Shown here: piece after piece, positions 1,120 to 53,711 of the stretch
Layout: each line of letters begins with the position of its first letter
How positions within the stretch are numbered: position 1 is the first letter of the stretch
Source of the DNA: Ophelia neglecta
Taxonomy: Eukaryota
Assembly (NCBI GenBank): GCA_965285935.1
Contig: OZ260662.1
Span: 20,584,001 to 20,648,000 of the forward strand
Length of the DNA stretch: 64,000 nt
Direction of reading: 5' to 3'
Notes under the pieces: generated by a model
Databases searched by the model: none
What the model saw: the letters and a program-made list of their open reading frames with translations, nothing else
Told to the model about the DNA's origin: nothing
Translations under genes and position numbers: made by a program

Positions 1120-2132
1120 AATACAAAATAACGGACTACCTTTATCATCGAGGCACATCAAAACTGGTAGCAAACATTTACTTCATGAGAGAAGCTTCAG
1201 ATACGGAGGTATAGTATCATAAATATCAAAAAAATACTTTTAGTTATTTATAAAGCTACAGGAGTTAGACCTTCATGCAACGCAATACCCAATGTATTAC
1301 AATAGGGACTGTAATGTGATTGAACATTTCATTCTGATCTCCCCAGAAGGGAACAGGGGTAATCATTCTTATTAATTAAAAAAACCATCAAAAATGATTG
1401 CAGCAACTTTTTGCTATGCTCAACGGACAAGCATAAACAAAGTTTATGGAATATGAAAATATATGGTGTGAACATACAAACTTGCCGAAATTTGACTTGT
1501 AAAGTTGTCTTTTAGCGTAGAACAAGTATTTGTATTTGCACCATAACCTGCTTTCAAAATTGAATTCTGTTATTTCCTAATGTTTTTGTTTATGACCGTT
1601 TGTGCAATTTGATGTTCATTCAGTACTTTCCCACACCCCTTGCCTGTTCACAAAACTTAAGAAACTTAAGGTTATCATACTGCGATGGACGTAATACAGT
1701 ACATAAAAAATATAAAGAACTTATGACCTTCATCTGCTATATCAATACGATCAATTTTAGTATCCTTAAATGTTAAATAGTCACCCGTTTCTATAGGTTA
1801 TACCATTCTTCAATGGTAAACGAAGCAAACAATATTTCAAATAAAATGGGAGAGTCCGGTTGGATTAATAGCTTTAATTCGACGGTCTTAAAGTTAGATT
1901 TTTACTCTAAATTTATGCTCAAATTTAGGATTTCGCAGAAATGAATAATTTAATGAGTATTTTATTAATCAGTCGTATGCATAATAAACACTGTTCGCTA
2001 ACTTACATAGACATTTTTTAAACATTCCAGTATGAGAAGTTCCGGGAATTCATTGACGAAGTTGTACCATCAGGGAGGGAACCTCTCCCCCAGTCAATAT
2101 TTGTGATTGAAAAGCCCAAACATACCTGTTGA
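1120..2132 (+). CDS. HNMT-like methyltransferase copy A, last two exons (exon 6 1120-1208, exon 7 2031-2132); earlier exons lie upstream of the window
   Basis: ctttcag|AATAC..GAG|gtatag encodes (E)YKITDYLYHRGTSKLVANIYFMREASDTE; ttccag|TAT..TGA encodes YEKFREFIDEVVPSGREPLPQSIFVIEKPKHTC*. Phases are compatible and the same exons occur in three other copies. Confidence 0.85.
1290..1900 (-). mobile_element. Highly decayed LINE ORF2 C-terminal remnant in intron 6 (also in the other gene copies)
   Basis: Broken minus-strand peptides such as TEFNFESRL and the paralogous SEGRKGRRSNELCICL resemble the KFR..GR..ER.C..C end of LINE ORF2; many stops and frameshifts. Confidence 0.35.
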
Positions 2133-5400: not shown

Positions 5401-6195
5401 CAAACTGTTTTCTTTCCGCATTACATTCACTTTATTCTGATGAGGCTGAAAAAGCTGTACGAAATGCGATTTTTTTGGGCACATCTTTAATTAAAATTTA
5501 TTGAAGTGGGACAAGTGACAAAACCTAGTTTGTGTTTCTACCAAAACACAAATAAAATAATATGTTTTTCTTGAAGGATTGTATTGAAAAAGGGATCGCT
5601 GATTTTATCCCGAGTTGAATTCCAAAGGGCCGGTATAGAATCTAGTAAAATCGTCAGCAGTCTTAGAAGGTTGAACTATGTTTGCATTTATTAGTCATAA
5701 GAAAGTTCAACATGAAAAAGTACTGTTGTCTATTAGTCTTTTTGTCAAGTTATGTCAATACAATAACCTGCGAAGAAGCTTGATGTGTCTGGTTAATTAT
5801 GAGTTGTGCTATAAAGTAGAAAATACTTGTTTTACCAATATACCTATATTGCTTCAGTGATTAATCGATCTAGTACGAAGCCTTAAAATAGACCACATGC
5901 GCCCTAGCTACACAACTAAAAAAAACTATGGCACAGTTGCCACACAGTTCTAGTGGTAGGCATGTGTTTAGCATAGTCTTACCTTGACGGCGGGTGTTTA
6001 ACATGGCCTCATCCTGCCAATTGGTTTGACATGACCAACTAAAAATGGTCAATGAACTAACTGGAATTTCATGCTGCCATATTTACCGTGAATTGGTGGT
6101 AAATTAACTGTGCCGCAGTAAAATACACATCTGGTACCGAAAAGCTGTCGTACCGAACACTCAACGTGATATATAGGTGAATACACATTGCCGAA

Positions 6196-6331
6196 ATGGA
6201 TTTCCCGTTTTATTTAGAAGCCTTAAGAGAGCTCAATTCTCATACAGAAGAAGTAGAGTATGATTTTTTCAAGCAGGATGATGGTTTTCTGGGTATAACT
6301 TCCGCTCGAAGATTACTCAGCTTAGGAGCCG
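6196..6331 (+). CDS. HNMT-like coding exon 1, variant 1 (intact; distal to body B)
   Basis: gccgaaATGG start; MDFPFYLEALRELNSHTEEVEYDFFKQDDGFLGITSARRLLSLGA(G); 136 nt; donor G|GTAAGT in phase 1, matching exon 2. Confidence 0.8.
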
Positions 6332-9041
6332 GTAAGTAAAAAAAAATTACCTTATTAATCACTATATAAGATAGAACCAGTCCATAGAGTACTAAATTTT
6401 CTCAGCCATATGTTTTGTTCCCAATCAATGAGAGAAGTCTGTGGGTCATTTTTAATACTGTCTCATTTTATCGAAAAAAGAGAGTTTCTCAAACACTTTT
6501 CATTCCAAAGTGTTGATGGAGGGTAAATTTTTTCCCAAGTACTAAAACATCAGTTATTAATGAAGGAAAAGCGCAATTCTCCAGTCAACCGTCTTTAATA
6601 ATAGGTTTTTGCAAATAAATGCTGACAGTCTGCTCCAAAACTTTCCAGGCCGCTTAGTCCAGTGGCAGATGAACCCCCAAAAATGGACCAACAATATTTT
6701 GCTTTTTTTTTGGTCTACTGATCAAGAATAATGCCACTTCGGTACGCTTGAAGAATTTGAAATATCAAGTTGGCGGCCATTTTATAAAGTTGGCAATTGG
6801 TGGATTATATGTTGAGGTATTTAGAATTTGATTAAAGGGGGGGGGGAGGGATGATAAACATTATTTGTAATTATCAAGTTAATAAAGTAAATGAAGAATT
6901 AACTGACACTGAAATATAGAAAATGTCCGACAATGTGGCCGTCATTTACCCCTTTGTTGACTGTATATTGCCTGAGGTAAATGTCTGAATAAACGGTATT
7001 ATTTTTAAGAATTAAGTAATGGTTTCAGAACATATTGTTGTTTATTAAGACTCCACATATCTGGTGCATCATTCCTAATATATGTTTGATTTATGTATGA
7101 TATTCATATAATTACCCATTACACATGAGTCAGATGCTAATCGTAGTTTATGCAGTCTCATTCATGCTAAATTATACATTGTGATTTATAAGCGTCATGT
7201 ACACACCCTGTACTAAGAAAAGAAATAACATACTATGGTGGTTATCAATTCTTTCATCACGTTTCCAATTTTACAACATAATTCATTCAACACATCAAGT
7301 ACAAACCATGTACAGGGTGAAGTATTAACCATCGATGATTGGAAAACTTTATATTGAAAGCATAAAATTGATACCACACGCAATGAGGTGAAGCCAACAG
7401 TTTTCCATGACGGGAGTCAGAACACAAAACTAATGAATCAGTGGTCCACAGGACCCAGCTGAATTGTGCCCCAGGAGAGCTCTCCATAATACAGTGTTAG
7501 ACTCTTTTGTAATTATATCGCCTCGTTAATGCAATATAATGTTAACTATGAATACCATTCACGCTTTTATTGTGATTAAACATTCACTTGCATGTGCCAA
7601 GATATTATGTCAGTATGAAGCAGATACTATAACATTAGGAAGATGATGCACATGGCCCCTAGCTCTAGGACGTGCGGAATAGATCCCCCACGACAATTGC
7701 AATTTTACTGCATGTTCATCGTCTGCTCTGGTTGAAGGCAAATCGCTTACCTAAATACATTTCAACTCATGTACATCGGATTTTGATACTTTTTCCAAGG
7801 AAATCCTCACACAGATTGTATTTATTCGCGTATATATTTATTAATATTAACCCAAATATGTACATCTAAACATTAACACTCTGCCACACTCGATTCCATT
7901 TCTAGAGAAGGCTAAACTACTATATTCCTTTCATAGTTTCCTACTAATTTTCATTCCGTTTGTAAGAATGAGGGTATAGTCTAATTTGTCATCCACACTC
8001 ACATGTTAAGCCCAATATATATTTAATAGCCTTCCTGTTATTGAATATTCGTATTTCCTTGTTCTTTAATAGATTTATGTATTGCCTTGGTTTCGGAAGT
8101 TTGAATGAGATTGCCCACAGCTGTGACACCACAGTTGCAGCTTTATCAGACAGTATTCCCGCCGAAATTGGTATGATATTCAGTGGAAAGAATAATAAAT
8201 TAAAACGACTTAAGCGTCAATAACTTCGATTAATAGGACATAAGCATATTTTAAATAACTTTGCCAATATTTAATACGCATTTCTACAAGCATGTTAAAG
8301 TTCATAAAAGAATATGAATTTATTAATATTTATGAATTAGTATTTCCAGATGACAATATCGGTTTTTGCGCATAGCTGTTTAGATTTCACAATCCCAAAT
8401 ATGTGGTTAGATGGCATATAAATGGTTTATAAAATATATCTGACAAACGTAATGAATTGTTTTTGGCTCGCTGACGTAGCAATAGGAACCACATTGGCCT
8501 TCAGCAAAGTAAAGTACTCGGAAAATATCACTTGCTATTATCATATATATATGTCCCATCCCCTGCAGTTTGTTCCCGTTTCAGTAACAAAGAATGTGCA
8601 GGCTGACATTGATACCCCAATAAATGCACCACGGCCACATGTCAAAAAGAAAGTATACCTCTTGGCCAGTCAACGTCATGCACATGCAGGCTGACACCGA
8701 TCTCTAATAAATGTTTGATTTCTTAGATTACCAACCTAAACTTTCTGGTGACCTCTCACTCATCGGTCATACGGAACCCTTAACTAGGACAGTGTATATC
8801 AAATCGCAAAACCCTACTGTTGCTTCATTTATCAAATAACCTGAAGCCTTTGCATATTTATCAATAAATTACTATTATAGAAATGTTAGCTGAATGTTCC
8901 TGATGTAGGTGACACAAGAATTCCGAAGTGCATCCCAGCGAACTAACATGAAAACATGATAAACAGCCTCATATATGCAGACATATTTCTTTTTGGCAAT
9001 GCTGTACTAGAATCAACAAACGTAACTAGTTCATCGACAGG

Positions 9042-9993: not shown

Positions 9994-11178
9994 ATGTTAT
10001 TAGCCTGCCTATTGCTGGTACTGTCTCAGGCCTTGAGTGTCGTTCACCCCGTAGCCCCTCGTGTTCCCCCCAAAGAAATTCTCGACTTCGAGGAGGTCTT
10101 TGGCGTCGATGACGTCCTGAATATTTACTTGGTCTATCAGCCTATAGCTAGATAATTTAATTTATGCAAAAAGAAACCTCCTTTATGCAATAGCCATTTG
10201 CCATCGCCTAATCTCAGAGACCATGGGGTTATACGGAAATTGTATTGGATATTTTTTCCTTGAATTCAAAGTGGTTGTCATTTACTCTAAGCACACCCTA
10301 AATATAAAGTTTGCCCTGTTGACAGAATAAACTATTTCATTTAACATTTAGCGTGTAGACAAATAATTAAATTGTATTGGCAAAACCGCGATTTTTACTT
10401 CATATGGGCCTTATGCAAACACGGCGGACAATCTTTTATTTTTTTTTCTCTCAAAAAGTCGGAAAAAATGGCAGGTGCAAAAAATATTTACCCCTGGTGT
10501 GAAAGTCATCGACGCCGGTCATAAAAATGGTGCTGCCCGGCAACATCTTGTTTTGCGACGAAATTATTTACGGATTTAAACTTAGGCTCGGCTCATTCCA
10601 AAGTTGTATCATTTGACCGCTAAAGGCACTGATGCTATACCGATGAGATGGATTAAATCTATTCTCCAGTCTCGATGCGTTTTGGCCCGGTATGCAGGAC
10701 ATAGAAGTATGAAATATAGTTGTGCTATAGAAAGTAGAGAATACTTGTTTTACAAATTGGCCTATATTGCTTCAGCGATTGGTTCATCTAGTACGAAGCT
10801 AATAAATAGCCCAGATGCGCCCTAGCGGCAAGCTTTACAAAAGAACTATGACAACGTTTCATCGCATTACTAATGCTAGACATGTATTTAGCACAGGCTT
10901 ACCTTGACGGCGAGTGTTTAGCATGGCCTCATCTTGCCGCCCGGTTGGTTTAGCATGAGTCAAATTGCTAGGCGGGCAACAAAAACGTAGTAATATAGTA
11001 CAGCACACTGGAGCTTAAGCGCTAGAACTGGGTTATGAACTCACTGGCATAGCCCGCTGCCATATTTACCGTGAATTAGTGGTTACTTAACTGTTCCGCA
11101 GTAAAATACTCATCTGGTACCGAAAAGCTGTCATACCGAACACTCAACGGGATATATAGGTGAATACACTTTGCCGAA

Positions 11179-11314
11179 ATGGTTTTCCCGTTTTATTTAG
11201 AAGCTTTAAGAGAGATCAATTCTCATACAGACGAAGCAGAGTATGATTTTTTCAAGCAGCATGATGGTTTTCTACGTATAACTTCCGCTCGAAGATTTCT
11301 CAGCTTAGGAGCCG
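11179..11314 (+). CDS. HNMT-like coding exon 1, variant 2 (intact)
   Basis: MVFPFYLEALREINSHTDEAEYDFFKQHDGFLRITSARRFLSLGA(G); 136 nt; donor GTAAGC. Confidence 0.8.
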
Positions 11315-11419
11315 GTAAGCAAAAAAGATTACCTGATCAATCCCTTTAAAATAGAAAGAGTCCATAAAGTACTAACTTTTCTCAGCCATATGTTTAAGTA
11401 TGTTTTCAAGTATATAACA

Positions 11420-12179: not shown

Positions 12180-12560
12180 GACGTGCGGAATAGATCCCCC
12201 ACCGCAATTGGAATTTCACTGCATGATTATCTTCTGATCAGGTTCCAGGCAAATCGCTTACCCAATTTTTCAACGCATGTAAATTTGATTATGACACTTC
12301 TTGCATGGAAACCCGCACACATATTGTATTTATTCGCGTTTATATTTATTATTATTAACCCAAATATGTGCGTCTTCACATTAACATCTGCCTCAATTCC
12401 ACACTCCAAAGAGGAATGGCCCGATTCCATTTCCAGAGAAACTTCAAATTCCTTTTATATTTTCCTACTTATTTTTATTTCCTATGTAAGAATAAGGAGC
12501 ATGGCCAATACATATCAGATTGCCTTCTTGTTATTGATTTTTTCCCTAAAACCTTGTCCT
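12180..12560 (-). mobile_element. Decayed LINE ORF1 (RRM-like) remnant; paralogue at ~7670-8040
   Basis: KRNLKFL ... VKTHIFGLIIININAN ... RSVIIKF resembles the RRNNL..G / RPIIVKF ORF1 pattern; heavily degraded. Confidence 0.35.
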
Positions 12561-14402
12561 TTAAAGGATTTTTTGAATAACCTTGGTGTCGGGAGTTAGA
12601 AGGGGATTGCCCAATTCATTGATTGATCTATTTAACGCGTTACACCAGAGTTGCAGCTTTATCTGATAGTATTCCCCCGCAATTGTAGTGAGAAAAATGA
12701 TAACTTAAAACGATTTAAGCGTAAATAATTTCGATGATAATGAAATCAGCATTTTAAAAATATCATGGCCAATTTTAATACGCATTACTACATGCATATT
12801 TGAAGTTCATAAAAGAATATGGATTTTTGAATATTTGTGGATTAGTATGACCAGATGACAATATCTGTTTTTGTGCACAGCGGTTTAGATTATATAATTT
12901 ACAAATATTTGGTGAGATGGAATAAATTGTTGTCATATCTGACAATGTAAAAAACAAATTTTGGCTTGCTGCTGTAACAATTGAAACCTCTTTGGCATTA
13001 GGCAAAGCAACAGCAATGGAAATATCTCTTGATTATATCATTTATATATACCATCCCAAGCAGTTCGTTGCGGTTCAATAACAAAGTATACTGCATGGTC
13101 AGTCATGATCTCGCATATGCTGGGTGACATCGGTCCCCTAACAAATGCATCACGGCCACATTTAAATAACAAAGTTGGCCTATACCTCATGGCAAGTCAA
13201 CGTCATGCACATGCAGGCGGACACCGATCTCTAATAGATCTCACTCATCGGTCAGACGGAACCTTTGTGTTGGACAGTGTGTATCAAATCGCAAAAGATG
13301 CCGATTCACCCTACTGTTGCCTCCTTTATCACCTTGCCTTTAGCCAATGCATATTTATCATTATTTAATTATTCTAGAAATGTTTATTGAATTTAGTTGA
13401 TGTAGGTGACACAGGAATTCAGAAGAGCATCACAACGAACTCGAATAAAAACATAGTAAACAGCAGAATTTTTTTTTCTTTGGCGATGCTGTATTAGGAT
13501 CAGCATACGTTACTTGTTCATCGACAGGGATGTAATAAGCTTGCATATTGCTGGTACCGTCTCAGGCATTGAATGTCGTTCACCCCGTAGCCCCTCGTGT
13601 TCGCCCCAAAGAAATTCTCGACTTCAAGGGGGTCTTTGGCGTCGATGACGACCTGAATATCTACTTTGTCTAACAGCCTATAGCTAGACAATTTAATTAA
13701 TGTAAAAAGAAACTCCTTTATGCAATAACCATTTGTCATCGCCCAACCTCAAAGACCATGGGGTTATACGGAAATTGTATTGAATATTTTTTCCTTTAAT
13801 TCCAAGTGGTTGTCATTCACTCTAAGCACACCATAAATATAAAGTTTGCCCTGTTGACAAAATAAACTATTTCATTTAACACTTAAGCGTGCAGACAAAT
13901 AATTAAATTGTATCGGCAAAACGGCGATTTTTACTTCATATGCAAACACGGCTGACAATCTTCTCTAAAAAAATCGTAAAAACTGGCAGGTGTAAAAAGT
14001 GTTTACCCTTGGCGTGCAAGTCATCGACGCCAGGCATAAAAATGGTGCTGCCCGGCAACATCTTGTTTTGCGGCGAAATTATTTACGGATTTAAACTTAG
14101 GTTCGGCTCATTCCAAAGTTGTATCAATTGATCGCTAAAGGCACTGATGTTATACCGATGAGATCGATTAAATCTATTCTCCAGTCTCGAGACGATGTGG
14201 ACCGGTTTGCGGGTCATAGAAGTATGAAATATAGTTGTGCTATAGAAAGTAGAGAATACTTGTTTTACAAATTGGCCTATATTGCGATTGGTTCATCTAG
14301 TACGAAGCCTAAAAATAGCCCAGAAGCGCCCTAGCGGCAAGCCTTAAAAAAGAGTTGTTTAGCATGAGTCAAATTGCTAGGCGGGCAACAAAAACGCGGT
14401 TA

Positions 14403-14748
14403 GGGACGCACCATTCAATATCTGGGGGGGGGGGGGGGGGGCGACAAATTTTTAAAAAAAAATTGTTTGTTTCTGGTTATGCATAAAAAAAATTGTTTGT
14501 TTCTGACTCTGGAAAAACATTAATTGTTTGTCTGATATTTTCTTTAAAATTTTTTTTTTTTTTTTAAAGTTTGATCAAGGCTAGGGAAAAAAATATTTGA
14601 TAGAGATTTGTTAGAAAAAAAAATTGTTTGCTTCCCAAATAGGAAAAAATAAATTGTTTGTTTGTCCAAAGCTAGAAATTTTTTTGTTTCACTAGAAAAT
14701 ATTTTGTCGCCCCCCCCCCCCCCCCCCAAATATCTAATGGTGCGTCCC
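14403..14748. mobile_element. PIF/Harbinger-type MITE upstream of exon 1 variant 3
   Basis: TIR GGGACGCACCATT / AATGGTGCGTCCC with poly-G and poly-C subterminal tracts; TTA duplicated at 14400-14402 and 14749-14751; empty site near 10990. Confidence 0.9.
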
Positions 14749-14818
14749 TTATATAGTACAGCACAAGCTGTCGTATCGAACACTGAACAGGATATAAAGG
14801 TGAATACACGTTGCCGAA

Positions 14819-14955
14819 ATGGATATCCCGTTTTATTTAGAAGCCTTAGGAGAGCTCAATTCTCATACAGAAGAAGCAGAGTATGATTTTTTTCAAGCAG
14901 CATGATGGTTTTCTACGTATAACTTCCGCTCAAACATTACTCACTTTAGGAGCCG
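14819..14955 (+). pseudogene. HNMT-like exon 1, variant 3 (frameshifted; nearest to body B)
   Basis: T7 instead of T6 in GAT TTT TTC gives 137 nt and an early TGA; also R>G, RR>QT and S>T changes; donor GTAAGC retained. Confidence 0.7.
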
Positions 14956-15056
14956 GTAAGCAAAAGAATTACCTCATCAATCACTATTTAAGATAGAACG
15001 AGTCCACATAGTACTAAATTTTCTCAGCCATACGTTTTAGTATGTGTTCTTGTTTC

Positions 15057-15128
15057 TGCGCGGGGCGCCTGCCCGCTGCTGCCTATGTTTAAATAGTTAT
15101 GGGTGGCGGCGGGTGGGCGTCTCGCGTG
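15057..15128 (+). other. GC-rich 31-bp stem-loop in intron 1 (copies at ~37449-37520 and ~57123-57194)
   Basis: 15057-15087 pairs without gaps to 15098-15128 using only Watson-Crick and G-U pairs; 10-nt loop. Confidence 0.75.
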
Positions 15129-16025
15129 TCTGTGTGGTTGACAAATAAGGAACACCCTTTCTAGAGCTCTTCATGCTTACCTGGTTCAGGTGCTTTGTTC
15201 TACCATCATCATTCTTCTTGCAATACTATCATATCTATTGTATTTGTATCATTATCGGTCGTGCACCATTTTTTTATTAACAAGGGACTATTGTTATATT
15301 TTGTTCTAAATTGTAGGCAATTAATAAATATTTTGTTACAAGGGGTCTTTGATTTTTCTTTTATAACCAGTTTTTGGACTACTATATTGATTATAGTTTA
15401 TCGTATCTTATCGCTCCCTGCCTACTTTCCAGTTTCTTGGTGTTTTGGAATTGGTGACTTAGCAGACATATCACACGTTATGTCACTTAATGATTAGTAT
15501 AGTTACTCCCTCATCTCATGTCATCATATCATTTTTTATCCCACGCATATTTGTAAGATTGTCTCAATGATTTTATTTGGAAATTACCTTTTTGAAGCCT
15601 TCTGTAAAATCCAAATTATGTAAATAAATATATTTAAACCAAATACTTAAATTGACTTCTGAAAAGACACAAGGATATGCATAGGATGAATAGATAAATA
15701 GCAGTCACACTGTGCAACAGTGCGAATCCATACATGATCAAATTTTTGTTAATGGTGTAGAGAGATCTGCTCATTTCCAAATGCCTTCATGTAAAAATCG
15801 AATGAATACCAATTGTGTTTTGGTCACATCACTGGCATGAAATTGATATATTCATATTTTCTTATGTGGCTTTTACTTTTGACAAGAATCATACACAAGT
15901 TGCTGCAAATAACACACCTTGTTCGTTTACCCCACCGTGTAAAGTGTAGATTAAAACAATGGAACAAACAATTTATCAAATATACCTCAAAGAAGTATTT
16001 AGCAATGGCACTGATAGGACAAGAT

Positions 16026-18225
16026 ACTTGTATTCCAGAAATCGAAACTAAATTCAATAAATATAAACATAAAGAACATTCTTGGATAACTTATGGAATA
16101 TTGCATTCTATACACACTAGAGATCTGCTTGCCAAAAAGCGAAACACTGTTGAAAATACACCCAGGTACACAGAAACAAACAACCACTTACTACATTATA
16201 GGAGTGTACTTGACAAAGTGATTAAACATACCCGTTTCGAAAATGCTAAAAGTGATATCAAACGTACATGGGCCAATATAAAAATGTTAATGGGAAGTTA
16301 AACTGATAATAAAATTCAGCGGTTATTTTATGATGATCTAAATAATAAAATTACGGACCCTCAGGAAATAGTAAATAAATTTAATTCATTTTTTGGTAAT
16401 ATAGGAAACATTGTATGTCCTCAGGACAACAGGGAATCCAGCCCATTTCAAACTTATCTGAAACAGCCGCTCATGAATAGAATTTTCCTCAGAAATACAG
16501 ATGGTTCTGAAATTGTGCAAATAATGAGTAAGTAAAAACCAAAAACCTTCTTTGGTTTCGATGGCGTAACTCCGAAATTATTATCACAAACTGTTCATGC
16601 CATAGCGCATCCTCTCGCCGAAATTTTTAATTTAATGCTTAGAACAGGAACATTCCCACAAAAGATGAAGATAGCAAAAATCCTCCCATTTTATAAAAAA
16701 GACGATCCAAGTAGATTTACAAATTATCGGCCAATAGCTATCCTGCCAGCCTTTTCTAAATTTTTTGAAAAACTACTCTATAATCGTCTGTATAACTTTC
16801 TAGCGTCCTCTTCCCCTCACAGTATGGTTTTAGGAAAAATCACTCGACCGAATACGCTAGCCAAGAATTACTTGACCACACAGTGAATAATATAGGTGCC
16901 AAACAAAACGTTGCCGCAATATTTATTGATTTAACAAAGGCTTTCGATACTATGCACCATGAGACATTACTTTCAAAATTAGAACATTATGGAATCCGAG
17001 GCACGCCACTCAAAATATTTAAAAACTACCTTGCAAATAGAGCGCACTTCGTTTCCTATAACAATTATACCTCTGGTAATGTACCCTCAAATCATGGAGT
17101 GCCCCAGGGCTCCATATTGGGGCCCTTATTGTTTCTTCTGTATATAAATGACATTTCGCAATCCTTAAAACATTCAATGACCATTTTATTTGCTGATGAC
17201 ACCAGCTTGATCCTACATGACAGTGATATCAACACCCTTATTCTTAACATGAACTCTGATTTCGAAAACATTAATCTTTGGATAAATGCAAATAGTCTTT
17301 CAAAAACATAAACAAAAGCAAATATATCACATTTAGACGCTCAACTAGAAATAATTACAAAAATTCAAACTATGTGGTCAAACTAAAAAGTATGAAAGTA
17401 GAACAGGTGCAACATTATAAATTCCTAGCAACCTTTTTTGATGAGAAACTAAACTGGAGAGCTAACATCAATGAAAAATGTAAAAACATATCAAAGATTA
17501 CTGGCATATTAAACAAATTAAAACACCAACTACCATGTTATATCCTAAAAATAATATACACCTCTCTTATTCAGCCTCACCTAACTTATGGTTTAACATT
17601 ATGGTATAACCAAAACAATCAAACTGAGTGCAACAGACTCTTCACACTACAAAAGCGAGCCATGAGAATTATCACAAAATCCCCATACCTCTCTCATACC
17701 GAGCCTTTGTTCAGATCCACTAGTATACTTAAATTAAAAGAATTATTTACATTCCAATGCCTGAAAATATATTTTGCCCTTATTAACAAAACCTGTCCTC
17801 ATTATACCTTAACAAGCATCACATTAACGAAAAACGTAACCCGTTCCTATTATACTAGAAGCCTGGAAGTAATTCAGCGAAAGCCCATAAGACTAGATAT
17901 TGCTAAGCAGTGCCTGTGGTACAAATTGCTAATATCAACCAATACTATCCTATATGACTTGAGAAGTTCATTGTCAAATAAGACCGATTACAAGAATATT
18001 TTTATTAGTCAATATATAAATACATGTTGTCTGCAAGACTGTTATGTCTGTAATAGTAACCCATCATAATATTTTTTTTTCTCGCCAATATTTATGTATA
18101 GAAATATGATTGTATTTTAGAATATGTAACGCGTATGTCTGTGCTCCTGTGTCAATAGGGCGGCCAGTGTCTACAGCTACGGCCATTACTGGCGTCCTTT
18201 AATAAATTGATTTCAAATCAAATCA
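16026..18225 (+). mobile_element. 5'-truncated CR1/L2-group LINE (disrupted RT) in intron 1 of copy B only
   Basis: NYRPIAILP, FIDLTKAFDT, GVPQGSILGPLLFLLYIND, LFADDT; 3' stem-loop, AATAAA and (CAAAT)n tail; AAGAT duplicated at 16021-16025 and 18226-18230; empty sites near 38433 and 58107. Confidence 0.95.
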
Positions 18226-18555
18226 AAGATTTATTGAAAACAAATCAAGTCACTAAGATATAACAACACTTCGAAGGTACAGCACTATTAGCACCAGTAG
18301 ACTGGAAAAATTCATGCAGTTAAATATGCTTGAATAACATTCTGAATTTGGAAAGGTTACAATAGGGACAGCCTATCAGTTGGTTGGCATGTTTTCAATC
18401 AATCTCCTTATAATATTAATGTGGTTTTTTTCTGGGGACAGGACATGCAGAGAGTTTGATAGAATGGCCCATATATACGAGGCGCAAACAAAGCGATATT
18501 GATGCAAAACGGACAACACTACGATGTAATTACCTTTACTCAATAATTTGTGCAG

Positions 18556-21500
18556 GTGACGGACACTTTGAGGATCAGCTAACCAAACAAGGTTTATTAA
18601 AGAACTTAGAACTTTACCATGCTGTCGAACCAAACGCGACGGTTTTAGACAGTCTGAAGTCTCGGATACAGGCTCTTTTTCCTAAAGCGTTCGTATGTTG
18701 AAGAATTTTTTATTATTTAATGGCAATTAAACCAACAAATTCCTTAAACTGATTATGCAAGTTTTAGGAGTCTTCTGATATGCATCAAAGCGATGCGAAT
18801 GCCCAGGACGTAGGCATTTGCCTATACTGCATTATTATGTTTCCTACTTACAGACAATCTTTCAACAATTACCGGCGGATGAGTTCGAAGGAATAGCAAA
18901 AAACGGCGACGATGAGATGGATAAGACACCGGAAAAATACGACGTCATACTAATAATGCGCATGCTCAGCTATGTAAAGGACAAGGTAGATTGCATCATA
19001 GATATGTATAATCCATATGTATTCTCTATGTCTATGATTGCATGCACTTTTTTTTAGGAGTGTGAATTGGTCGAGTGTCGAAGTGCGAGTTAAAAAGGCG
19101 AGGAGCGAGATAAAAAGTCGAGGAGTGAGTTAAGAAAGCGAGGCCCGTCCTCAACCACGAGTGACATGACCTGGTAATTCTCACGTGCAGGCAAATCGAA
19201 TGCGCCCTGCCCAGGAATGTTAAATTAAATGTTTGGGTTTTAACGTCCCTTTCAACACTTGAGAGGTCATATCGGGATAGGGAGTCTCTTGGAACGATGA
19301 GGCGAAGGTCTGATGAATCACTCCCCCACACAAGGTTAGGTTGAAAACAGCCCTCTCAAGCTGGGTTCGAACTCAGACCTTGGAGGTCGGAGGTCCAGCA
19401 CGCTACCACTGGACCACGGAGACTCCCTCCCTGCCCAGGAAGCGCTCGAGTTGCACCACAGCAGGCTGAGGTAGACTTATATTAGTCCGGTAAAAACGAC
19501 TAGGAAGCGTTCATTATATATGGCCGGAGGGGGGGGGGTTAATTTAATTTTTTTTTGGGTGGGGGGGCCTTTATTCAACCCATTTCCATGGGGGGGGGGG
19601 GGATTTTTGTTAACCTATTCACAGGGGGGGGGGGGACGATTTTTTTTAACCTTTTAACAAGGGAACGCGTTTTTTCACGTATTTCTTATTGACACTTTTG
19701 GGTAGCTATTTTATTGAAATATATATTGTACAAAAGTGTGTAGTGAAACTGCAAATGCAAATGATCAAACTTAGACAAATTCCAGATTTTATACAGTAAT
19801 GACATATGAATAGCAGGTATATACAACTCTTTTGGCATGAAATGATACATTATACCCATGACTCCGAATTCAGAACAAATCATAAGGTACAAAATGATTT
19901 ATTTCTTATTTATGAATGTGCACATTGTTATAAGCGATGCAGTCCTGGTTAATCCATTATTATCATACAATACTTATCAAAACAATGAGATAATAACAGA
20001 TTTAGGACTTGTAGAAATGTAAAATATGACAAGATGTTCGCAGTGACACAGAACTAGCAATCATGAATCAGTAATAAACATTGACAAACATAAAACGAGT
20101 TACGATAGTGTCTGCTGTGCAACAGCCTGACACAAAATTATATATATCACGCAACACTGACCAGACATGCACACTAAAACAAATCGACTCGTATGCACCA
20201 ATACAGCACTTACAAAACTTGAAAGAACAGTGATACATATATCCAATTGAAATAAAAATCAAGTCTAATAACTGGAATTACGAGGATGTTTGAATGAGGA
20301 TGTTCCATTGGGCCACCCCCTATGGGGCCAATTGGTCAATGTACCTGCTGTCTCCCTAACTTTCATGTGATAGATGTATTGACATGACGTGCAATAATAC
20401 ACAGTACAACTTTTACAAACTATTTCCATGGCGATGACAATATCACAAAAATCGGGAGAAAGTCCATTAAATCAACGAATCAAAGACAAAATATATTTAT
20501 TTGGCTCAGCTTAATTGAAGCTTTGATATTAATAAATAGCACCAGGGACATTGAACTAAAATAAAATCATCGAAATATATGCTAAAATGATCAAATCCTG
20601 AACAACATCCACTCAAAAAGTTTCATACCCTCTATATCTAATGACATGCTATGACTCGAATCATTAAAAATTAATGTTGGTCCCTTCAATTGAAGTAACT
20701 GACGAGCACATGCACAGTACCACATGAAAGCATCCCGCTCACATCCAAATACTCCTTTCCCCTCCGCACTAGAGATGGAGAAATATCATCGAGTGAATAA
20801 CAACTTGTCTTTGATGGGGGGGGGGGGGGATTATTTTTCCACTTATTTCCGAGTGGGGGTGATATTTTTCCAGCTTTTTCTGAGGGGGGGGGATATTTGT
20901 CCACCTATTTCGGAAGGGTGTGGGCAATTTTTCCCATCTATTTCCAAGGGGGGGTGCAATTTTTTGGACGTATTTATTTCAAACATTTACCACCACTACT
21001 ACGCACCCACCCACCCCCCCCCCTCCCCCATCCCCCGGCCATAAATAATGAACGCTCCCTTATCAATCAAAGGATAATCTGACGTAGATTATCGTAAAAA
21101 TTTAAAATATAGGGTATTAATAATCAAAAGGGAAGAGCATTTGAATTGAGAATCAAAATATAACGGAAATTAATCAACCATTGCATTATCATTGCTGTGG
21201 AAAATATTCTTTCACGTAAATTTGCAAAATAGGTCTTATTGACCTTCCCCTCTCTTTCTTAACTCGCTCCTCGAATTTCATCTCGCTCCTCGCTTTTTTA
21301 ACTCGCTCTTCGCTGCTCCACCAATTTACACAGTCATTTCTTACCTTAGTCCCGGGTTGCCGGTTACTACATCCAATTCACAAATGAGTTATTATGATGA
21401 AATGGGATGTATCTGACAACATACGCTCACCCTACACAGGTACCATCTGGTGCAATTTCTAAAAAACAATCATCATCCTTTGGCCAAACTATTCGTGTTC

Positions 21501-24500
21501 CAATGGGTTAGTTTCCTGAATGGTGGGAAGTTGAACATTATCAGGAAATGTTCACCTTATTTTGGCAATATAGATGATTTATTTTGGTATATAAATTAAT
21601 ATTGCAGACAATATTTTCTGCTATGTTCGGGTCTTTATCACAAAAGAGAAAATGATTTCGATATTCAGATAGTAAATTTCCCATTCCTTGGCGGCAAGAT
21701 TTTTATTTTCCAAGCTATTAGATGATATTTCGAGGACTCTGGGTTTTATAAGAACTTAAGCGTGTGCTGGATGAAGGGTTGTTCGCTTGCCTCATAATTA
21801 CATCACCTATTGATGGCTTCAATTCATATATTGTTACACTAACTTATTTGAATTCTGGTACAAAGTGTCACTAGAATTGTCGTCCTTGCCTCTTAATAAC
21901 ATCAATATTCCTGTCCTCAAATATAATAGCAACAAATATATATGGCATATTGTGTGTGCTGTTACGACATATAAGTCATTTTTATATAAAATAAGTTCAA
22001 TAATGACATCATTAAAAGTGTTACGTGTTATTTTCCTTGCGAATAGTGGTTTGTATAGAAAAAATTAACATACAGAGAAGGGTCACTCTCTGTGACATTT
22101 CTTTATCCTAACCATAGGACCCATAACACGATGCTCATTTCATAACAAATAACACCATGTATTACCAAATTTGATTTGATCTTTAAAAGGTAAGACTTCT
22201 TCGCCTCGCATATTCCTTGTTACTTGAAGGCGGGAAAATGATAATTATCCACAATGAAGGTGCCTCTACATTTTCGCTTTTTGGTGAGTTGTTTTGTGGT
22301 ATTTGTTTTGAATTTTAACACTTTAACAGTTTGCATATAGAATCACATGTTTAGCAAGTTTCTTTTTCAACTGATTTGATTTATTGTCACACTTAATTTT
22401 GTGATAATAATGAATGCCCCTGGATCGGGTACTAGATGGCCCAACGCTCTCAATTCTAGCATACTGTTGTTTGCTATAAAGAACCATGTACAAGAATACA
22501 TTATTCGCAGCGACCAAAATCCTATTATCAACATTCTTATTTAGGATCATATTCCCAATTTAAATGCTGCAATTCTTCAAATTCCTGGAATATCAACTGT
22601 CTGATGACACTCTAAAAATCTTAAGTTGATGCCTTGTAGACGAAACAATAGCATTGATTATGAAAGCGGTCCGCAATAATCGCGAACCACCAGCCACAGG
22701 CCCATAAATCTCACATACAAATAAATGTCCAGCTCCCAAACAGTAAATAATGTTTGAAGAAGATAATAGATATTGATGTTGTTTGCAATGAGAATCGGTC
22801 AACAGTTTTCCATGATGCCAGTCAGCCCTAAACAAACGGGTTTATGGTGAAGGTAGGACCGATAAAATATGATCCAGCATGGCCTATAATGGTCCAAGCC
22901 ATATCACCATTAGGACACTAAAGATGAAATTTTCAATAATCAATTGCCAATGCGCCCAGAAAATGGACTTCCCGTTGAGGTACAGCCCCATAAAATTATT
23001 CACGTCATAATTATAGAATAAGATTATATTGCTCTTATCTTAAGGGACAAGTACATTATAAATTTAGGCAAAAAAAGTGATAATTGAATTTATTGATTTG
23101 ACCATGCATATATATTCAGAGGCGACATGGTACACTCTTTCTCATAATGTATGGTAATGTCACCTTTTTTTATATATCGCAAACATGGTCGTCTTTTCAT
23201 TCCACACAATGCCGATATTGACATATTCCTGTTTCTAAAACTGTTGCAATGATTCAGATGTGTCTGAACACAGAAGTACAACTTGTATCTGCTGCAAGAG
23301 ACTTTAGATATATGTGTGCGGGAATTTGTCTGCTGGTACCTGGTTAATTTGGACCGATTGTTTGACAATTCTTGATAACCTATTTTGTTTTGTCTGTCTT
23401 GTATCTACTTCCGTTTTTATCGATTAACATGCAATTAATGAAATGTGTTTTTCTTCAAAAATCGCCATTTTAAGCTTTAAAACGCTACATGCAGTTTTCA
23501 GATCCTAATGGACATTGCATATACTATAAGCATATATATGTGTTCAGTAGAATAAAAAATCGAGTGTTGTATTTGTCAATGTGTGCATCTTGCACTCTTA
23601 TATATAATATGGGTGCTATTTATAGGTGAGCGTTTCGGCATAAGTAAGAGACAGTACTACGCCCGTCACATTGCAGAGGATTTGAAAAGCGCAGGTCTCA
23701 TTTACAAAGGTAAAACGCACTGTTTAATGGTTTATACGGCAGTTTTCTCGTTACTTTTATTACTTGAGAAGTTGGGTTTTTTGTCAAATGTATGTGCATG
23801 CCAAAACATGTTCATCTAGTGACATGACAGTTGGGGTTATAAAAACTGCAAACTAGAATTCAATGAAATAAATGGATGGATTTTTATGGTAACACGACTT
23901 CTTATTCTTAAGAAGAAGTCGAACATTGTTGCTTTGGATGTAGTTAGCAAACATTAATGATGCTAAATAGGAAAAGCTAAGTAGAAATGTCATATACTGC
24001 ATACACAATTATTCGTGGGAAATATATCATTGTAGAATATCAAGAAACTTAATACTTGAGATTAGTACATTATATCAGATACATATAGTTGCACTATACG
24101 TCTCTGATTATATGGAGTATTGGCGGAAACCGTCCCTGTGATGAAGCAGTAGGTCCAGAAGGTTACTTATTTTTGCAATTTCACAATTGATGGGACGAAG
24201 AAGATAGTTGGAGGGAGGGGGACATTATCAACCCTCTCTTTGAGAAAATTTTGCTAAATATGACTTTTATGACATTCTAATTAATTAGTATAATATTAAT
24301 GTACCCAAATTCGACAAAACTGACTCTTGGCAGGATGGACTTGGCACTGAAGAAGTTTAATGAGGAAATTTCTGGTTCGGATAGGAATTCATCTAATACA
24401 TATATACATTACATGGAGTTCTGTAGGAAACCATTCCTGCGACGAAGTAGTAAGTCCAATGGGCGACTTATTTTCGTAATTTGACAAATGATAGGACCGA

Positions 24501-26930
24501 GGATGCCCCCTTCCTTCTTTTTCAGAAAGTTTTGCTTAATATGATTCTTTTGACATTCTAATTATTTGATTGAATAAAAATTGGCGGGCATTAACTAAAT
24601 AAAATATAAAGCAGAAGGAAAAACCTTGAAAAAATGGAAAAAACTTGGAAGGGCGGACTTAGCACTGTAGAGTTTAGGGAAATTTGATTTCAGATGCGGA
24701 TAGAAGTAATGTATTGTAGATTTTATGGAGCAACATTGACAAACATATCACATAGCAGTAAACTATTTACACCTTCAAGATATTTGTCCACTTGACACCT
24801 GTGTCCCGCTTCCTATGTATAACTAGTTATACTAAGGACGTAGCGGACAAGCGTCCAGTGTACCTGTGGCCTTAATTGTAGCTCGAACAATAACAATAAA
24901 TAGCTATGGCAAATTGATTTTGTGAATTTAATGTAAAAGTTGAAGACATACACAGTATGTTCACGTGTATGGAAGGAAGTTCGATGGAAATAAATACTCA
25001 TTAATATGGAAAAACATAGCAAAAACATAAGTCTATTTCTTCAGTTTCTTTCGAAATGAAGAAAAACCTATTTCTGCCAGAATAGAAAAAAAAATTCTTT
25101 CCATAGAACAAACGGCATGTCAGAAGATGTTGCCGACAATGTATAGTAAAGTTAGGAGATTTGTCGTGCGCCTTAATATGGCGAAAATTTGCATATACCG
25201 GGTAAGAAATCCTCTTTCAATGTTTAATGACATTTAAGAGTCTTGACACGAAAAAAGGAGTTATCAATTGTTTGTCATTCAAAATAATTCTTTCGGCGAA
25301 CTTCCGTTCAACTAAGACAATTATAACAAAACACACCGTTGTATTCATTTTGGGAATTAGGCAAGGTATTTTCGTCTTCGAATTGAATCAATCGTGTTTT
25401 AAGATATGTATTCTCTCAGGTCATCGAAAAAACTTATTTTTTCTATTTTTTATTCAATAAAACAACCGGCGTTTGGCGCTGTGCCAACATATTTTATACG
25501 CGACCGAAGACCTGCCTGTTTTTTTTTTGACTTTTCACCTTAGCTTATGCATTGTCACAAATATTATTTCTTACAGGTACTTTTCCGTCATATCACATAT
25601 TAAACCAATTTCTAGCAAGGTATTTTCGTCTTCGAATTGCATCAATCGTGTTTTAAGATATATTCTCTCAGGTCATCGCAAAAACTTATTTTTTCTATTT
25701 TTTATTCAATAAAACCACCGGCGTTTGGCGCTGTGCCAACATATTTTATAAGCGACCGAAGACCTGTCTGTTTTTTATTTTATTTTTTGACTTTTCACCT
25801 TAGCTTATGCATTGTCACAAATATTAATTCTTACAGGTACTTTTCCGTCGTATCACATATTAACCAAATTTCTAGAACAATGTATTATCTTCTTTTAGAA
25901 TACAACATTACGGACTACCTTAATCATCGAGGCACATCAAAACTGCTAGCAAACATTTACTTTATGAGAGAAGCTTCAGATACGGAGGTATAGTATGTTA
26001 GATATCAACACAAGTACTTTGATTTATTTATTTATAAAGCTAAAGGAATTAGACCTACATGCAACGAAATACCCAATGTATTACAGTAGTGAGTGTAATG
26101 TGATTAAACATTACAGTCAGACAGAAGGGATAATAATTGATAATTAATAAAAGCAATCAAAAATGATTTCAGCAACTTTTTGCTATGCTCAACGGACAAG
26201 CATATACAAAGTTCATTTGATCTCCGCCCCTTCCTTCCTTCAGATAAAACCGATCTAATGGAATATGAAAATATAGTGTGTGGACTTACAAACTTGCCGA
26301 AAATTGACTTGAAAAGTTGTCTTTTAGCAGAGAACAAGTATTTGTATTTGCACCATAATCTGCTTTCAAATTGAACTCTGTTATTTCCTTATGTTCTTGT
26401 TTATGACCATTTATGCACGTTGGTGTTCATTCAGTATTTCTCACACCACTTGCCTGTTCACAAAACTCAAAATGTAAGTTTATCATACTGGGATGGACGT
26501 AATACAGGACAATACATTAAAAATATAAAGAACTTATGACCTTCAGCTGCTATATGATCAATGTGTGTATCCTTATATGTTAAATAGTCTCCCTTTTCTA
26601 TAGGTTACACCATTCTTCAAGGATATACTAAGCAAACAATATTTAAAATCAAATTGGAGAGTCCGGTTACATTAATAGCTTTAATTCGACTAAAGTTAGA
26701 TTTTTACTCTTAATGTATGCTCAATATAGGATTTATGAAATAAATAATTTAATGAGTATTTTAGTAATCAGTCCTATGCATAATAAACACTATTCCATAA
26801 CGTACATAGACATTTTTAAACATTCCAGTATGAGAAGTTTCGGAAATTCATTGACGAAGTAGTACCATCGGGGAGGGAACCTCTCCCCCAGTCAATATTT
26901 GTGATTGAAAAGCCCAAACATACCTGTTGA
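18556..26930 (+). CDS. HNMT-like methyltransferase copy B, exons 2-7 (18556-18692, 18854-18985, 22190-22283, 23626-23709, 25899-25987, 26829-26930)
   Basis: All introns are GT-AG with a continuous frame: G|DGHFED..HAVEPN..KYDVILIMRMLSYVKDK|VRLLRLAYSLLLEGGKMIII..IAEDLKSAGLIYK..SIFVIEK. This matches the recalled HNMT motifs LSIGGGAG, VVEPS, KWDFIHMIQMLYYVKD and SFIVIEA. Confidence 0.9.
18997..19036. mobile_element. 40-bp CATAGA..TCTATG mini-element (P-element-like termini)
   Basis: Terminal inverted CATAGA/TCTATG; ATTGCAT duplicated at 18990-18996 and 19037-19043; absent from copies C and D. Confidence 0.65.
19218..19428 (-). mobile_element. tRNA-derived SINE
   Basis: Minus strand has A box GTGGTCCAGTGG and B box GAGTTCGAACCC and a LINE-like tail GTTGAAAGGGACGTTAAAACC; 13-bp TSD CCCTGCCCAGGAA at 19205-19217 and 19429-19441. 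Confidence 0.9.
19503..21059. mobile_element. PIF/Harbinger-type non-autonomous element nested in the 19057-21335 element
   Basis: TIR GG(A/G)AGCGTTCATTAT(A/T)TATGGCCGG at both ends, poly-G and poly-C subterminal runs, flanked by CTA and TTA. Confidence 0.85.
25360..25875. repeat. Tandem duplication of ~256 bp at the 3' end of intron 5 in copy B
   Basis: GCAAGGTATTTTCGTCTTCGAATTG..AATTTCTAG occurs twice head to tail; single in the other copies. Confidence 0.9.
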
Positions 26931-29145: not shown

Positions 29146-29281
29146 ATGGATTTCCCGTTTTATTTAGAAGCCTTAAGACAGTTCAATTCTCATACAGAAG
29201 AAGCTGAGTATGATTTTATCAAGCAGCATGATGGTTTTCTACGTATAACTTCCGCTCGAAGATTGCTCAGCTTAGGAGCCG
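29146..29281 (+). CDS. HNMT-like coding exon 1, variant 4 (frame intact, weak donor)
   Basis: MDFPFYLEALRQFNSHTEEAEYDFIKQHDGFLRITSARRLLSLGA(G); 136 nt; donor is GTTCGC. Confidence 0.65.
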
Positions 29282-34121: not shown

Positions 34122-34247
34122 ATGGATTTCCCGTTTTATATAGAAGCCTTAAGAGAGCTCAATTCTCATACAGAAGAAGCAGAGTATGATTTTATCAAGC
34201 AGCATGATGGTTTTTACGTATAACTTCCGCTCGAAGTTTAGGAGCCG
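34122..34247 (+). pseudogene. HNMT-like exon 1, variant 5 (frameshifted)
   Basis: 1-bp deletion gives GGT TTT TAC GTA TAA, plus a 9-bp deletion; donor GTAAGT retained. Confidence 0.8.
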
Positions 34248-48845: not shown

Positions 48846-48981
48846 ATGGTTTTCTCGTTTTATTTAGAAGCCTTAAGAGAGTTCAATTCTCATACAGAAG
48901 AAGCAGAGTATGATTTTATTCAGCAGTATGATGGTTTTCTACCTATAACTTTCGCTCGAAGATTACTCAGCTTAGGAGCCG
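48846..48981 (+). CDS. HNMT-like coding exon 1, variant 7 (intact, most diverged)
   Basis: MVFSFYLEALREFNSHTEEAEYDFIQQYDGFLPITFARRLLSLGA(G); 136 nt; donor GTAAGC; small deletion just upstream of the ATG. Confidence 0.7.
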
Positions 48982-53576: not shown

Positions 53577-53711
53577 ATGGATTTCCCGTTTTATATAGAA
53601 GCCTTAAGAGAGCTCAATTCTCATACAGAAGAAGCAGAGTATGATTTTATCAAGCAGCATGATGGTTTTTACGTATAACTTCCGCTCGAAGATTACTCAG
53701 TTTAGGAGCCG
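53577..53711 (+). pseudogene. HNMT-like exon 1, variant 8 (frameshifted)
   Basis: Same 1-bp deletion as variant 5 (135 nt, early TAA); donor GTAAGT. Confidence 0.8.

Follow-up and report, generated by a model that had tools for sequence, protein, structure and literature searches.

Apparent loss of the proximal first exon and promoter in one unit of a probable methyltransferase array: young pseudogene or possible rescue by a distal exon 1

In a 64,000-nucleotide (nt) stretch of Ophelia neglecta contig OZ260662.1 (here called the window), one gene body of a tandem array, body B, appears to have been left without a functional exon 1 and promoter of its own. Judged from the DNA, B is either a young pseudogene or a gene read from a spare promoter and exon 1 lying 12 kb upstream. 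Rescue of B by a distal first exon after duplication and loss has, in our estimate, only just less than an even chance of being correct. The arrangement has the look of an ordinary duplication by-product rather than of regulated exon choice.

The window holds a tandem array of a seven-exon gene, all on the forward strand, whose product is a probable class I SAM-dependent methyltransferase. Four bodies (the tail of A, then B, C, and D) alternate with triplets of exon-1 copies, and no single constant region lies downstream of the array. Body A is represented by exons 6 and 7 (1120..2132), its 5' part being outside the window. Gene C (37216..44374) is complete, with a proximal exon 1 and exons 2 to 7, and encodes 260 amino acids (aa). 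The coding sequence of gene D (56890..64000) is identical to that of C, with exon 7 cut by the window end. The C and D units are 99.2 to 99.5% alike, and none of their 36 SNVs falls in the 735 coding nt (p = 0.028). All three complete units share the layout of two extra exon 1s plus a body; since C and D share it by recent descent, its recurrence is not independent. Exons 2 to 7 were found in bodies A to D only (E ≤ 1e-3, 64-kb window), and a search of the window for decayed bodies behind the orphan exon-1 copies found none. Each duplicated segment runs from upstream DNA through exon 1 into the beginning of intron 1 and includes none of the later exons. Rfam gave no matches across the 64 kb.

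Methyltransferase motifs follow consensus patterns, and words resembling them were recognized by eye in the expected order and spacing: LLSLGA (glycine-rich, at the end of exon 1 and running into exon 2), HAVEP (exon 2, resembling the acidic end of a strand), KYDVIL (exon 3), and LLLEGGK (exon 4). According to a published description, the motifs of class I SAM-dependent methyltransferases occur in the order I, post I, II, III (PMC13410288). The array protein (257 to 260 aa) may be like these seven-beta-strand enzymes in motif order; none of the searches reached significance. Methyltransf_12 matched B exon 3 at E = 0.21, below the cut-off, in one of eight pieces, and this was not repeated for C exon 3. 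In 23 single-exon scans of Pfam and NCBIfam nothing rose above the cut-off, with exons as short as 27 to 47 aa. Protein database searches gave 19 candidates for B exon 2, none with E ≤ 0.1, and no candidate for C exon 3. The protein of this species was thus not recovered, although blanks with queries of 31 to 47 aa say little. With C exon 1, a HMMER search of a representative library returned two proteins (eight repeated short stretches in one, none in the other), which were judged spurious. Solved structures, searched with three of the seven exons, yielded no methyltransferase match (best E values of 0.3 to 0.82, unrelated proteins), and a plasmid tblastn with two exons gave one match (E = 3). 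The array protein may resemble histamine N-methyltransferase (HNMT)-like proteins, a tentative lead.

Body B itself is intact from exon 2 onward, as the original prediction stated. Its exons 2 (18556..18692), 3 (18854..18985), 4 (22190..22283), 5 (23626..23709), 6 (25899..25987), and 7 (coding part to the TGA, 26829..26930) have AG acceptors in 6/6 and GT donors in 5/5 cases, with the frame open to the TGA. Two predicted details were recovered as well: exon 7 differs from that of copy A by three silent changes and one replacement (K/E), and exon 3 bears an in-frame 9-nt indel (132 nt in B, 141 nt in C and D), a length difference that is not polarized by A, whose exon 3 is not within the window. 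Three insertions are present in B and absent from C and D. They are a sense, frameshifted LINE fragment in intron 1 (16020..18225), recognized by an RVT_1 match (E = 8.4e-24), ORFs, and a self-alignment gap; a terminal-inverted-repeat element in intron 3 (19060..21331) with a second, nested arm pair at 19502-21060; and a MITE near exon 1, described below.

Comparison of body B with C gave a pN of 0.034 and a pS of 0.095 (pN/pS 0.36, p = 0.003), with introns mostly 6 to 9% different. Exons 4 and 5 together differ at 3/178 nt, which is not significant conservation against a neutral-B expectation (p = 0.055), and the B/C replacements (16.5 in 490 sites) are unpolarized, with about 17 to 23 expected from a neutral B lineage alone. 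No disabling lesion was found in body B, compared with about 4 expected if it had been neutral since the split (P = 0.02); for neutrality over 10, 25, and 50% of the lineage, the probability of a lesion-free body is 0.67, 0.37, and 0.14. A crude likelihood ratio of a body still constrained to a whole gene neutral since its proximal exon 1 died is 3.2 to 7.3, or 2.1 to 4.1 at half the coding indel rate, or 3.4 to 20 if that exon died at least half-way back. Since body B is conserved and lesion-free, it is modestly favored to be functional, or recently so.

Upstream of body B lie three exon-1 copies, v1, v2, and v3. The nearest, v3 (14819..14955), is by position the original exon 1 of body B, and its intron aligns with intron 1 of C and D across 1 kb (79/1048 differences, 7.5%). 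As predicted, v3 carries a +1 frameshift: it is 137 nt long, compared with 136 nt in intact copies, has a run of seven Ts at 14887-14893, and stops at a TGA in codon 29 (14903-14905). Among the nine copies, the T run is seven long in v3, six in four others, and four in the remaining four. The amino-acid changes noted earlier were also found, as four private replacements (F3I, R11G, R39T, and S42T) with no private silent change; since exons 1 to 3 hold 17 of the 23 replacements, this excess is not special to v3. A sequencing error in the T run, which had been named in advance as a refutation of the prediction, was examined using C and D as a control. Over 13.2 kb, 0/80 runs of at least five and 0/29 of at least six differ between the two units, although polishing could have levelled these copies, which weakens the control. 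Between the B and C introns, 2/18 runs of at least five differ (2/6 of those of at least six). That C/D runs are invariant while B/C runs differ argues that real slippage outweighs error here, and the extra T is probably real. Splice rescue of v3 was rejected because the stop falls within the exon, 50 nt ahead of the donor, as was a restart at the next Met, which would lose 112 residues; nor is there support for ribosomal slippage at the T run.

The predicted damage in front of v3 was likewise present. A 346-bp MITE (14403..14748) with terminal inverted repeats (arms of 52 nt, 90% complementary) ends 67 nt before the ATG, close to the predicted distance of about 70 bp. TTA is duplicated at its borders (14400-14402 and 14749-14751), and a 3-bp duplication of this kind would suggest a PIF/Harbinger type. 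The deletions claimed upstream of v3 amount to about 104, 127, and 6 bp relative to the v2 upstream DNA. They lie in a v2-like block (13530..14399) with 6/139 and 2/56 differences to v2 and 20/116 to D. The last v3 upstream DNA homologous to C and D is a 54-bp segment (14765..14818; 4/54 differences to D). New here is that the upstream DNA of C and D is kept by v3 for 54 bp only and is carried by v1. These comparisons suggest that the v3 upstream DNA was duplicated from that of v2 4 to 8% divergence ago and then suffered three deletions and the MITE, which would make the loss an old one.

Both v1 (6196..6331) and v2 (11179..11314) had been described as intact. This stood for frame and donor, each copy having an ATG, an open frame, and a GTAAG donor (GTAAGT in v1, GTAAGC in v2); it did not extend to v1's private replacements or to v2's upstream DNA. 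v1 has three private replacements (A20V, H28D, and R33G) and one private silent change, which is about the neutral rate and ratio. The v2 coding sequence is the closest to C/D (6 differences), whereas its upstream DNA (9994..11178) is rearranged and 15 to 28% different from that of C/D, being a sister of the v3 upstream DNA (support 98/98; 65/823 differences). v1 and v2 differ at 7/45 residues, and either gives an in-frame protein of 257 aa with body B. Counted back from the exon 1/exon 2 junction, v1 differs from C/D at 11, 24, 40, and 41 nt, v2 differs from C/D at 11, 17, and 24 nt, and v1 and v2 differ from each other at 17, 40, and 41 nt; counted forward from it, B differs from C/D at 56, 57, 78, 80, 89, 93, and 113 nt. 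Because the v3 frame ends at codon 29, with no further in-frame Met before residue 113 of 257, a full-length B protein would need v1 or v2, in agreement with the earlier claim that a functional B must splice from 6331 or 11314.

The DNA upstream of v1 (5400..6195) is of the C/D type, with 47/788 differences to D (6.0%) and 8/190 (4%) near the ATG, from -250 to -60. On the strength of this similarity and of two short words, one GC-box-like and one CCAAT-like, it is a putative promoter. v1 is the only one of the six distal exon-1 copies with C/D-type upstream DNA; since this is the type found at the complete genes, v1 is the likelier start for B and our best candidate. The DNA downstream of v1 (6340..7259; 90/903 differences) is common to the Y-type orphans at 34122 and 53577 and is not that of C/D intron 1. 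The AG located 19 nt before the ATGs of v2 and v3 has 3 T in 16 nt, compared with 7 to 11 for 12 real acceptors. Premature polyadenylation barring a long intron was also considered, and AATAAA frequencies were uninformative (1.96/kb compared with 1.88 to 1.97/kb in working introns), as were pyrimidine-rich YAG sites (10 in 12 kb compared with 3 in 1.3 kb of C intron 1).

Phylogenetic comparison showed that the flanks are mosaic. In the upstream tree v1 groups with C/D (support 100/99), and in the intron tree the DNA downstream of v1 groups with the Y-type orphans (94/94). Upstream, 29 sites side with D versus 6 that do not; for the intron the count is 6 versus 10 (p = 0.003), so the affinity of v1 switches across exon 1. 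An 86-nt intron tree did not group v3 with C/D, and the exon-1 tree had no supported branch. One of four triplet mosaicism tests was significant; for v3 the test was unsupportive (p = 0.31) and was replaced by the pairwise alignment. Flank allele counts of 0.53 and 0.75 per site were set aside because they include nonhomologous ends. At silent sites the exon-1 copies diverge by 0.064, a third of the 0.18 seen upstream, a pattern to be expected if exchange takes place at the exon. The divergence of the v1 upstream DNA from D is close to that of the v3 intron, which dates this DNA to about the time of the B/C split. We infer that the exon-1 copies and their flanks arose by unequal crossing-over and do not form a maintained repertoire.

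All nine exon-1 copies within the window end in the same phase. Exon 1 comprises 45 codons and ends inside the glycine motif, and thus is not a whole domain. The copies hold 22 replacement alleles for 105 sites and 6 silent alleles for 30 (ratio 1.06), numbers so small that weak constraint on one copy is possible, and pN and pS over 21 pairs are 0.072 and 0.064. By these measures the copies vary like neutral DNA, with no purifying signal as a group. Four of the nine are damaged, three by a frameshift and one by a degraded donor. The orphan at 29146..29281 has an open frame, a donor degraded to GTTCGC, and an insertion interrupting its upstream DNA; the Y-type orphan at 34122..34247 is frameshifted by 1-nt and 9-nt deletions, and that at 53577..53711 has the same 1-nt deletion. 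The copy at 48846..48981 is open in frame and donor, with eight replacements relative to the column majority, a 14-nt deletion abutting its ATG, and an inverted-repeat element upstream. Thus, all four orphans preceding C and D carry damage to the frame, donor, or ATG context. The probability of two intact orphans by chance is about 0.18.

The rescue of B could have proceeded as follows. Unequal crossing-over with exchange points in or beside exon 1 would have generated body-less pieces of promoter plus exon 1. In unit B, the trees suggest that about 8.6 kb was inserted between the C/D-type upstream DNA and B's own exon 1, so that the displaced upstream DNA would now stand in front of v1. v3 would have been left behind v2-type upstream DNA, most of which was then lost to deletions and the MITE, and would have been frameshifted; these lesions are observed, and their order is our reconstruction. 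B would survive as a single gene, transcribed from the v1 promoter and spliced from 6331 to 18556 across a long first intron of 12.2 kb. Splicing would skip v2 and v3, probably for want of a good acceptor ahead of either. v2 would be the second candidate start. Most likely, on our analysis, this is redundancy followed by loss, as in Arabis PEP1, with no regulated choice among functionally different exons.

That B is instead a young pseudogene, which died when v3 or its promoter broke and has not yet accrued lesions, with v1 and v2 as silent relics, is a serious possibility that we rate somewhat below even. The neutrality of the exon-1 copies as a group and the damage to all four orphans before C and D fit it, as do the insertions borne only by B and the intact copies supplied by C and D; a lesion-free body is also no surprise after neutrality for a quarter of the lineage and less expected after half. 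Yet the v3 upstream damage suggests an old loss while the body is without lesion, giving a likelihood ratio of 2 to 20 against this explanation. Moreover, an active promoter with a consensus donor is expected to be spliced to the next strong acceptor, as would apply to v1 if its promoter is active. If, on the other hand, the extra T were a homopolymer error, v3 and B would form a normal gene. A +1 in a T run is the commonest type of long-read error, and this is the sole frame lesion of the v3-B model. We find this hardly credible, given the invariant C/D runs and the independent damage from the MITE, the deletions, and the four private replacements.

The original prediction also regarded B as the best test of a cassette model. 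In its wider form, variable first exons would be maintained as in UGT1, v1 and v2 serving body B and orphans such as 48846 serving D, with differing N termini. Finding v1 spliced to B would demonstrate rescue by a single distal exon; a cassette requires at least two first exons on the same body, and B is therefore no test of a cassette as such. We consider the wider model improbable. The layout shared by all three complete units, the common phase, and the differences between v1 and v2 are compatible with it, and pseudogene and relic exons also occur within UGT1 clusters (PMC1885805). However, the sequence lends it no support: pN in exon 1 is about equal to pS, four of nine copies are damaged in frame or donor, each body was duplicated with its exons rather than sharing one constant region, the short exon splits the glycine motif, and the layout common to C and D reflects recent descent. 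There is thus only a slight chance that an invertebrate array of small-molecule methyltransferases is evolving a variable-first-exon system in which exon-1 recombination shuffles promoters, N-terminal helices, and bodies, with v1 and v2 both live on B. We similarly doubt that v1 and v2, with different promoters and B's own exon dead, represent an early UGT1-like stage outside vertebrates.

If v1 drives B, the locus would be a clear natural case of first-exon change by duplication and loss in which the steps can still be traced; automated annotation would wrongly report B as a pseudogene or a 5'-truncated gene. Use of both v1 and v2 would show how variable-first-exon clusters can begin. A silent B would represent routine birth and death within a tandem array.

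UGT1/Pcdh-type clusters resemble this array in having same-phase tandem first exons upstream of common exons, with some relics and birth and death. They differ in having one constant region and roughly a dozen variable exons that each encode a complete N-terminal domain, compared with 45 codons and duplicated bodies here. Selection has been detected in them, with little gene conversion in UGT1, whereas the exon studied here is neutral-looking and homogenized. The Ugt1, Gcnt2, and Ugt2a organizations have been reported as vertebrate-specific (PMC1885805). The closest precedent is Arabis alpina PEP1, in which exons 1a and 1b lie 6.3 kb from each other and are each joined to a single exon 2 (PMC3527215). 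As here, a partial tandem duplication took in the promoter, the first exon, and some of intron 1, within a family that has full-length tandem copies; the exon-1 copies of unit B are also several kb apart, v2 and v3 lying 5.0 and 8.6 kb from v1. In PEP1 the distal exon 1 can splice past the proximal one to the shared exons 2 to 7, and frame and donor in B are compatible with such splicing. cDNA and 5' RACE demonstrated both PEP1 transcripts, and neither exon is interrupted (PMC3527215), whereas in B the distal splice is a prediction from DNA and the proximal copy is dead. In contrast to PEP1, the array has three exon-1 copies per unit, and this layout is repeated along it.

Self-alignment and exon mapping showed that a single 7-exon gene is repeated in tandem in the window. 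The sequence has 36-37% G+C, spliceosomal introns, and LINE and MITE insertions across the 64 kb, and is presumably from an animal. Body A is represented by its last two exons (6-7), bodies B (exons 2-7 at 18556-26930) and C are complete, and body D is truncated by the window end. The 136-nt first coding exon is present in nine copies (starting at 6196, 11179, 14819, 29146, 34122, 37216, 48846, 53577, and 56890), three preceding each of B, C, and D. A search of the window found no exons 2-7 outside the four bodies at E<=1e-3; thus, six distal exon-1 copies are without a body of their own. Joined to its nearest exon 1, body C gives a 260-aa frame, and D is identical to C as far as it runs.

When the exon translations were read by eye against consensus patterns, motif-like words were found in the order of seven-beta-strand methyltransferases. 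The one tool match for this family was Methyltransf_12 on exon 3 of B (one of eight pieces; E=0.21, below threshold), and the remaining single-exon searches gave blank or irrelevant results. The gene family is probably that of a methyltransferase, and presumably the protein resembles histamine N-methyltransferase. The motif order has been described (PMC13410288), and the histamine N-methyltransferase family is reported from deuterostomes, acoels, and anthozoans (PMC10244343).

Upstream of B lie the exon-1 copies v1 (6196-6331), v2 (11179-11314), and v3 (14819-14955). The original prediction described v3, the nearest, as broken, and this was confirmed: the 7-T run at 14887-14893 is unique to v3 among the exon-1 copies, the frame is shifted to a stop at codon 29, four replacements are private, the upstream region has deletions, and a 346-bp MITE with a TTA duplication ends 67 nt before the ATG. 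The claim that the rest is sound also held. Each of v1 and v2 is intact in frame and donor and, joined to B, gives a 257-aa frame, body B keeps its splice sites (AG at 6/6 acceptors and GT at 5/5 donors over six exons), its exon 7 differs from that of A by three synonymous changes and one replacement, and a 9-nt indel in exon 3 separates it from C/D (unpolarised).

That the extra T is a sequencing error appears very unlikely. The MITE and the upstream deletions are damage independent of it. Moreover, when runs with matching flanks were counted, homopolymer length varied between C and D (99.2-99.5% identical over 13.2 kb, 63 substitutions) in 0/80 runs of >=5 and 0/29 of >=6, while B and C introns differed in 2/18 and 2/6, respectively. 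These counts cap errors at ~2-5% per run and show true slippage to be common at B/C depth, although the C/D control falls short of proof, as polishing could have levelled the two. Besides the 63 substitutions, the C and D units (31133-44326 and 50585-64000) differ by 3 small indels, and upstream of C there is a ~212-bp deletion at 36571 relative to the D unit. In the gene block, 0/36 substitutions fall within 735 coding nt (p=0.028). The pair would have arisen by tandem duplication very recently, or else the assembly would have placed two haplotypes one after the other.

The exon-1 copies share ~0.2-0.9 kb upstream, exon 1, and ~90 nt of intron. In all nine copies (6196 to 57025), 90-100 nt of intron 1 are common before three unrelated continuations start from nearly one point (~6420, 11400, 15050, and equivalents), and even at silent sites, the copies of exon 1 resemble one another about three times more closely than the upstream DNA does. 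The upstream tree grouped v1 with C/D (100/99), v2 with v3 (98/98), and the two Y-type distal copies (34122 and 53577) together; the intron tree grouped v1 with the Y copies (94/94), and the exon-1 tree had no supported branch. Between -250 and -60, v1 differed from C/D at 8/190 positions and from v2 at 32/190. Down to -55, the v3 upstream showed 6/139 and 2/56 differences to v2 and 20/116 to D, its last 54 bp were closer to D (4 differences) than to v2 (6), and its intron was alignable with C/D over 1 kb. The switch in v1 affinity across exon 1 was significant in a triplet test (p=0.003); three other tests, including the v3 triplet, were not. Silent divergence among exon-1 copies was 0.064 versus 0.18 upstream. 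This suggests conversion or crossing-over centred repeatedly on exon 1, which may have been a site of unequal exchange. The similar ages of the v1 upstream (6.0% from that of D) and the v3 intron (7.5%) point to a split in which an inserted ~8.6-kb block would have separated the original upstream of B from its original exon; the picture would be identical had the duplicate arisen independently at about that age. GC-box-like and CCAAT-like words, putatively of a promoter, occur at matching positions only in v1, C, and D.

Blocks 7517-9041 and 12024-13528 are 18% divergent duplicates, but the adjoining 9994-10844 and 13530-14353 are only 8% divergent, and the v2/v3 duplication itself may be patchy in age. 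The putative intron from v1 to B holds what is probably the 3' part of a LINE in + orientation (9042-9993); this fragment terminates in AATAAA and short (CTAAA) repeats, and its ORF matched nothing in Pfam. The sequence common to the regions after the X-type distal copies (29400-30906, 49061-50587, and 11400-11617, where v2 retains only the first ~200 bp) reads by eye as a decayed LINE. An inserted element of 1.3 kb (47289-48566), bounded by perfect terminal inverted repeats of 31 bp, is located ~280 bp upstream of the copy at 48846. Intron 5 of B, just upstream of exon 6, carries a ~255-280-bp tandem duplication (25361-25894, 91% identical) absent from C/D.

Exon-1 alleles showed 22 replacements at 105 sites and 6 silent changes at 30 (ratio 1.06). 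In 21 pairs of 7 independent copies, omitting the near-duplicates 56890 and 34122, pN was 0.072 and pS 0.064. Three copies are frameshifted (two share one event), one has a degraded donor, and one has lost its ATG context; private changes are 3 replacements and 1 silent in v1 and 1 of each in v2. Nothing in these small numbers suggests a maintained repertoire. Between bodies B and C, pN was 0.034 and pS 0.095 (16.5 and 13.5 changes, p=0.003), and introns mostly differed by 6-9%. Because the comparison is unpolarised and ~17-23 replacements would be expected from neutral evolution of the B lineage alone, this ratio is no proof that B is alive. The absence of disabling lesions is more helpful: none was seen versus ~4 expected over the whole lineage, with a probability of 0.02 under full neutrality, 0.14 for half, and 0.37 for a quarter of the lineage. 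B/C replacements are concentrated in exons 1-3 (17/23, plus a 3-residue indel), and exons 4-5 are nearly invariant; the N-terminal half could be under relaxed or diversifying selection.

The likeliest reading, at slightly under an even chance, is that B is a single gene with a 12.2-kb first intron, begun at the C/D-type putative promoter of v1. In this gene, v2 and v3 would be passed over for want of a T-rich tract at the AG preceding their ATG (3 T in 16 nt there, compared with 7-11 for the 12 real acceptors), and v2 would be the second-choice start. Nearly as likely, B is a young pseudogene: the v1 exon looks neutral, the B/C path has its replacements concentrated in exons 1-3 anyway, three insertions are present in B alone, and two intact distal copies would arise by chance with P ~0.18. 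Against this, body B has no lesions, and a crude Poisson comparison favoured constraint on the body after v3 death 3-7x (2-4x with coding indels half as frequent, 3-20x if the death of v3 dates at least half-way back, which is suggested by how old its duplicated upstream is, at 4-8% divergence from that of v2). The sequence cannot separate these two readings.

A regulated cassette of first exons is improbable given the ratio of 1.06 and a repertoire not visibly maintained. The original prediction that a functional B must splice from 6331 or 11314 was sound, but its cassette framing overreached; what B could put to the test is rescue by a distal first exon and not a cassette. New here is the tentative ranking of v1 above v2 as the start of B, and with the diagnostic positions, one RNA read would suffice to decide its first exon.

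No invertebrate methyltransferase cluster with variable first exons was among the literature matches listed, which covered few subscription papers and no supplements. In UGT1, GCNT2, and Pcdh clusters, numerous variable exons, each encoding a complete domain, are described on one constant region, with selection detected (PMC1885805). The array lacks three defining features of such clusters tested here and is thus not classed with them. Its anatomy at B matches that of Arabis alpina PEP1, in which a 2-kb duplication takes in the promoter together with exon 1 and a portion of intron 1, and exons 1a and 1b, 6.3 kb apart, are each spliced to one exon 2 (PMC3527215); for B, the likeness is one of anatomy, with putative splicing.
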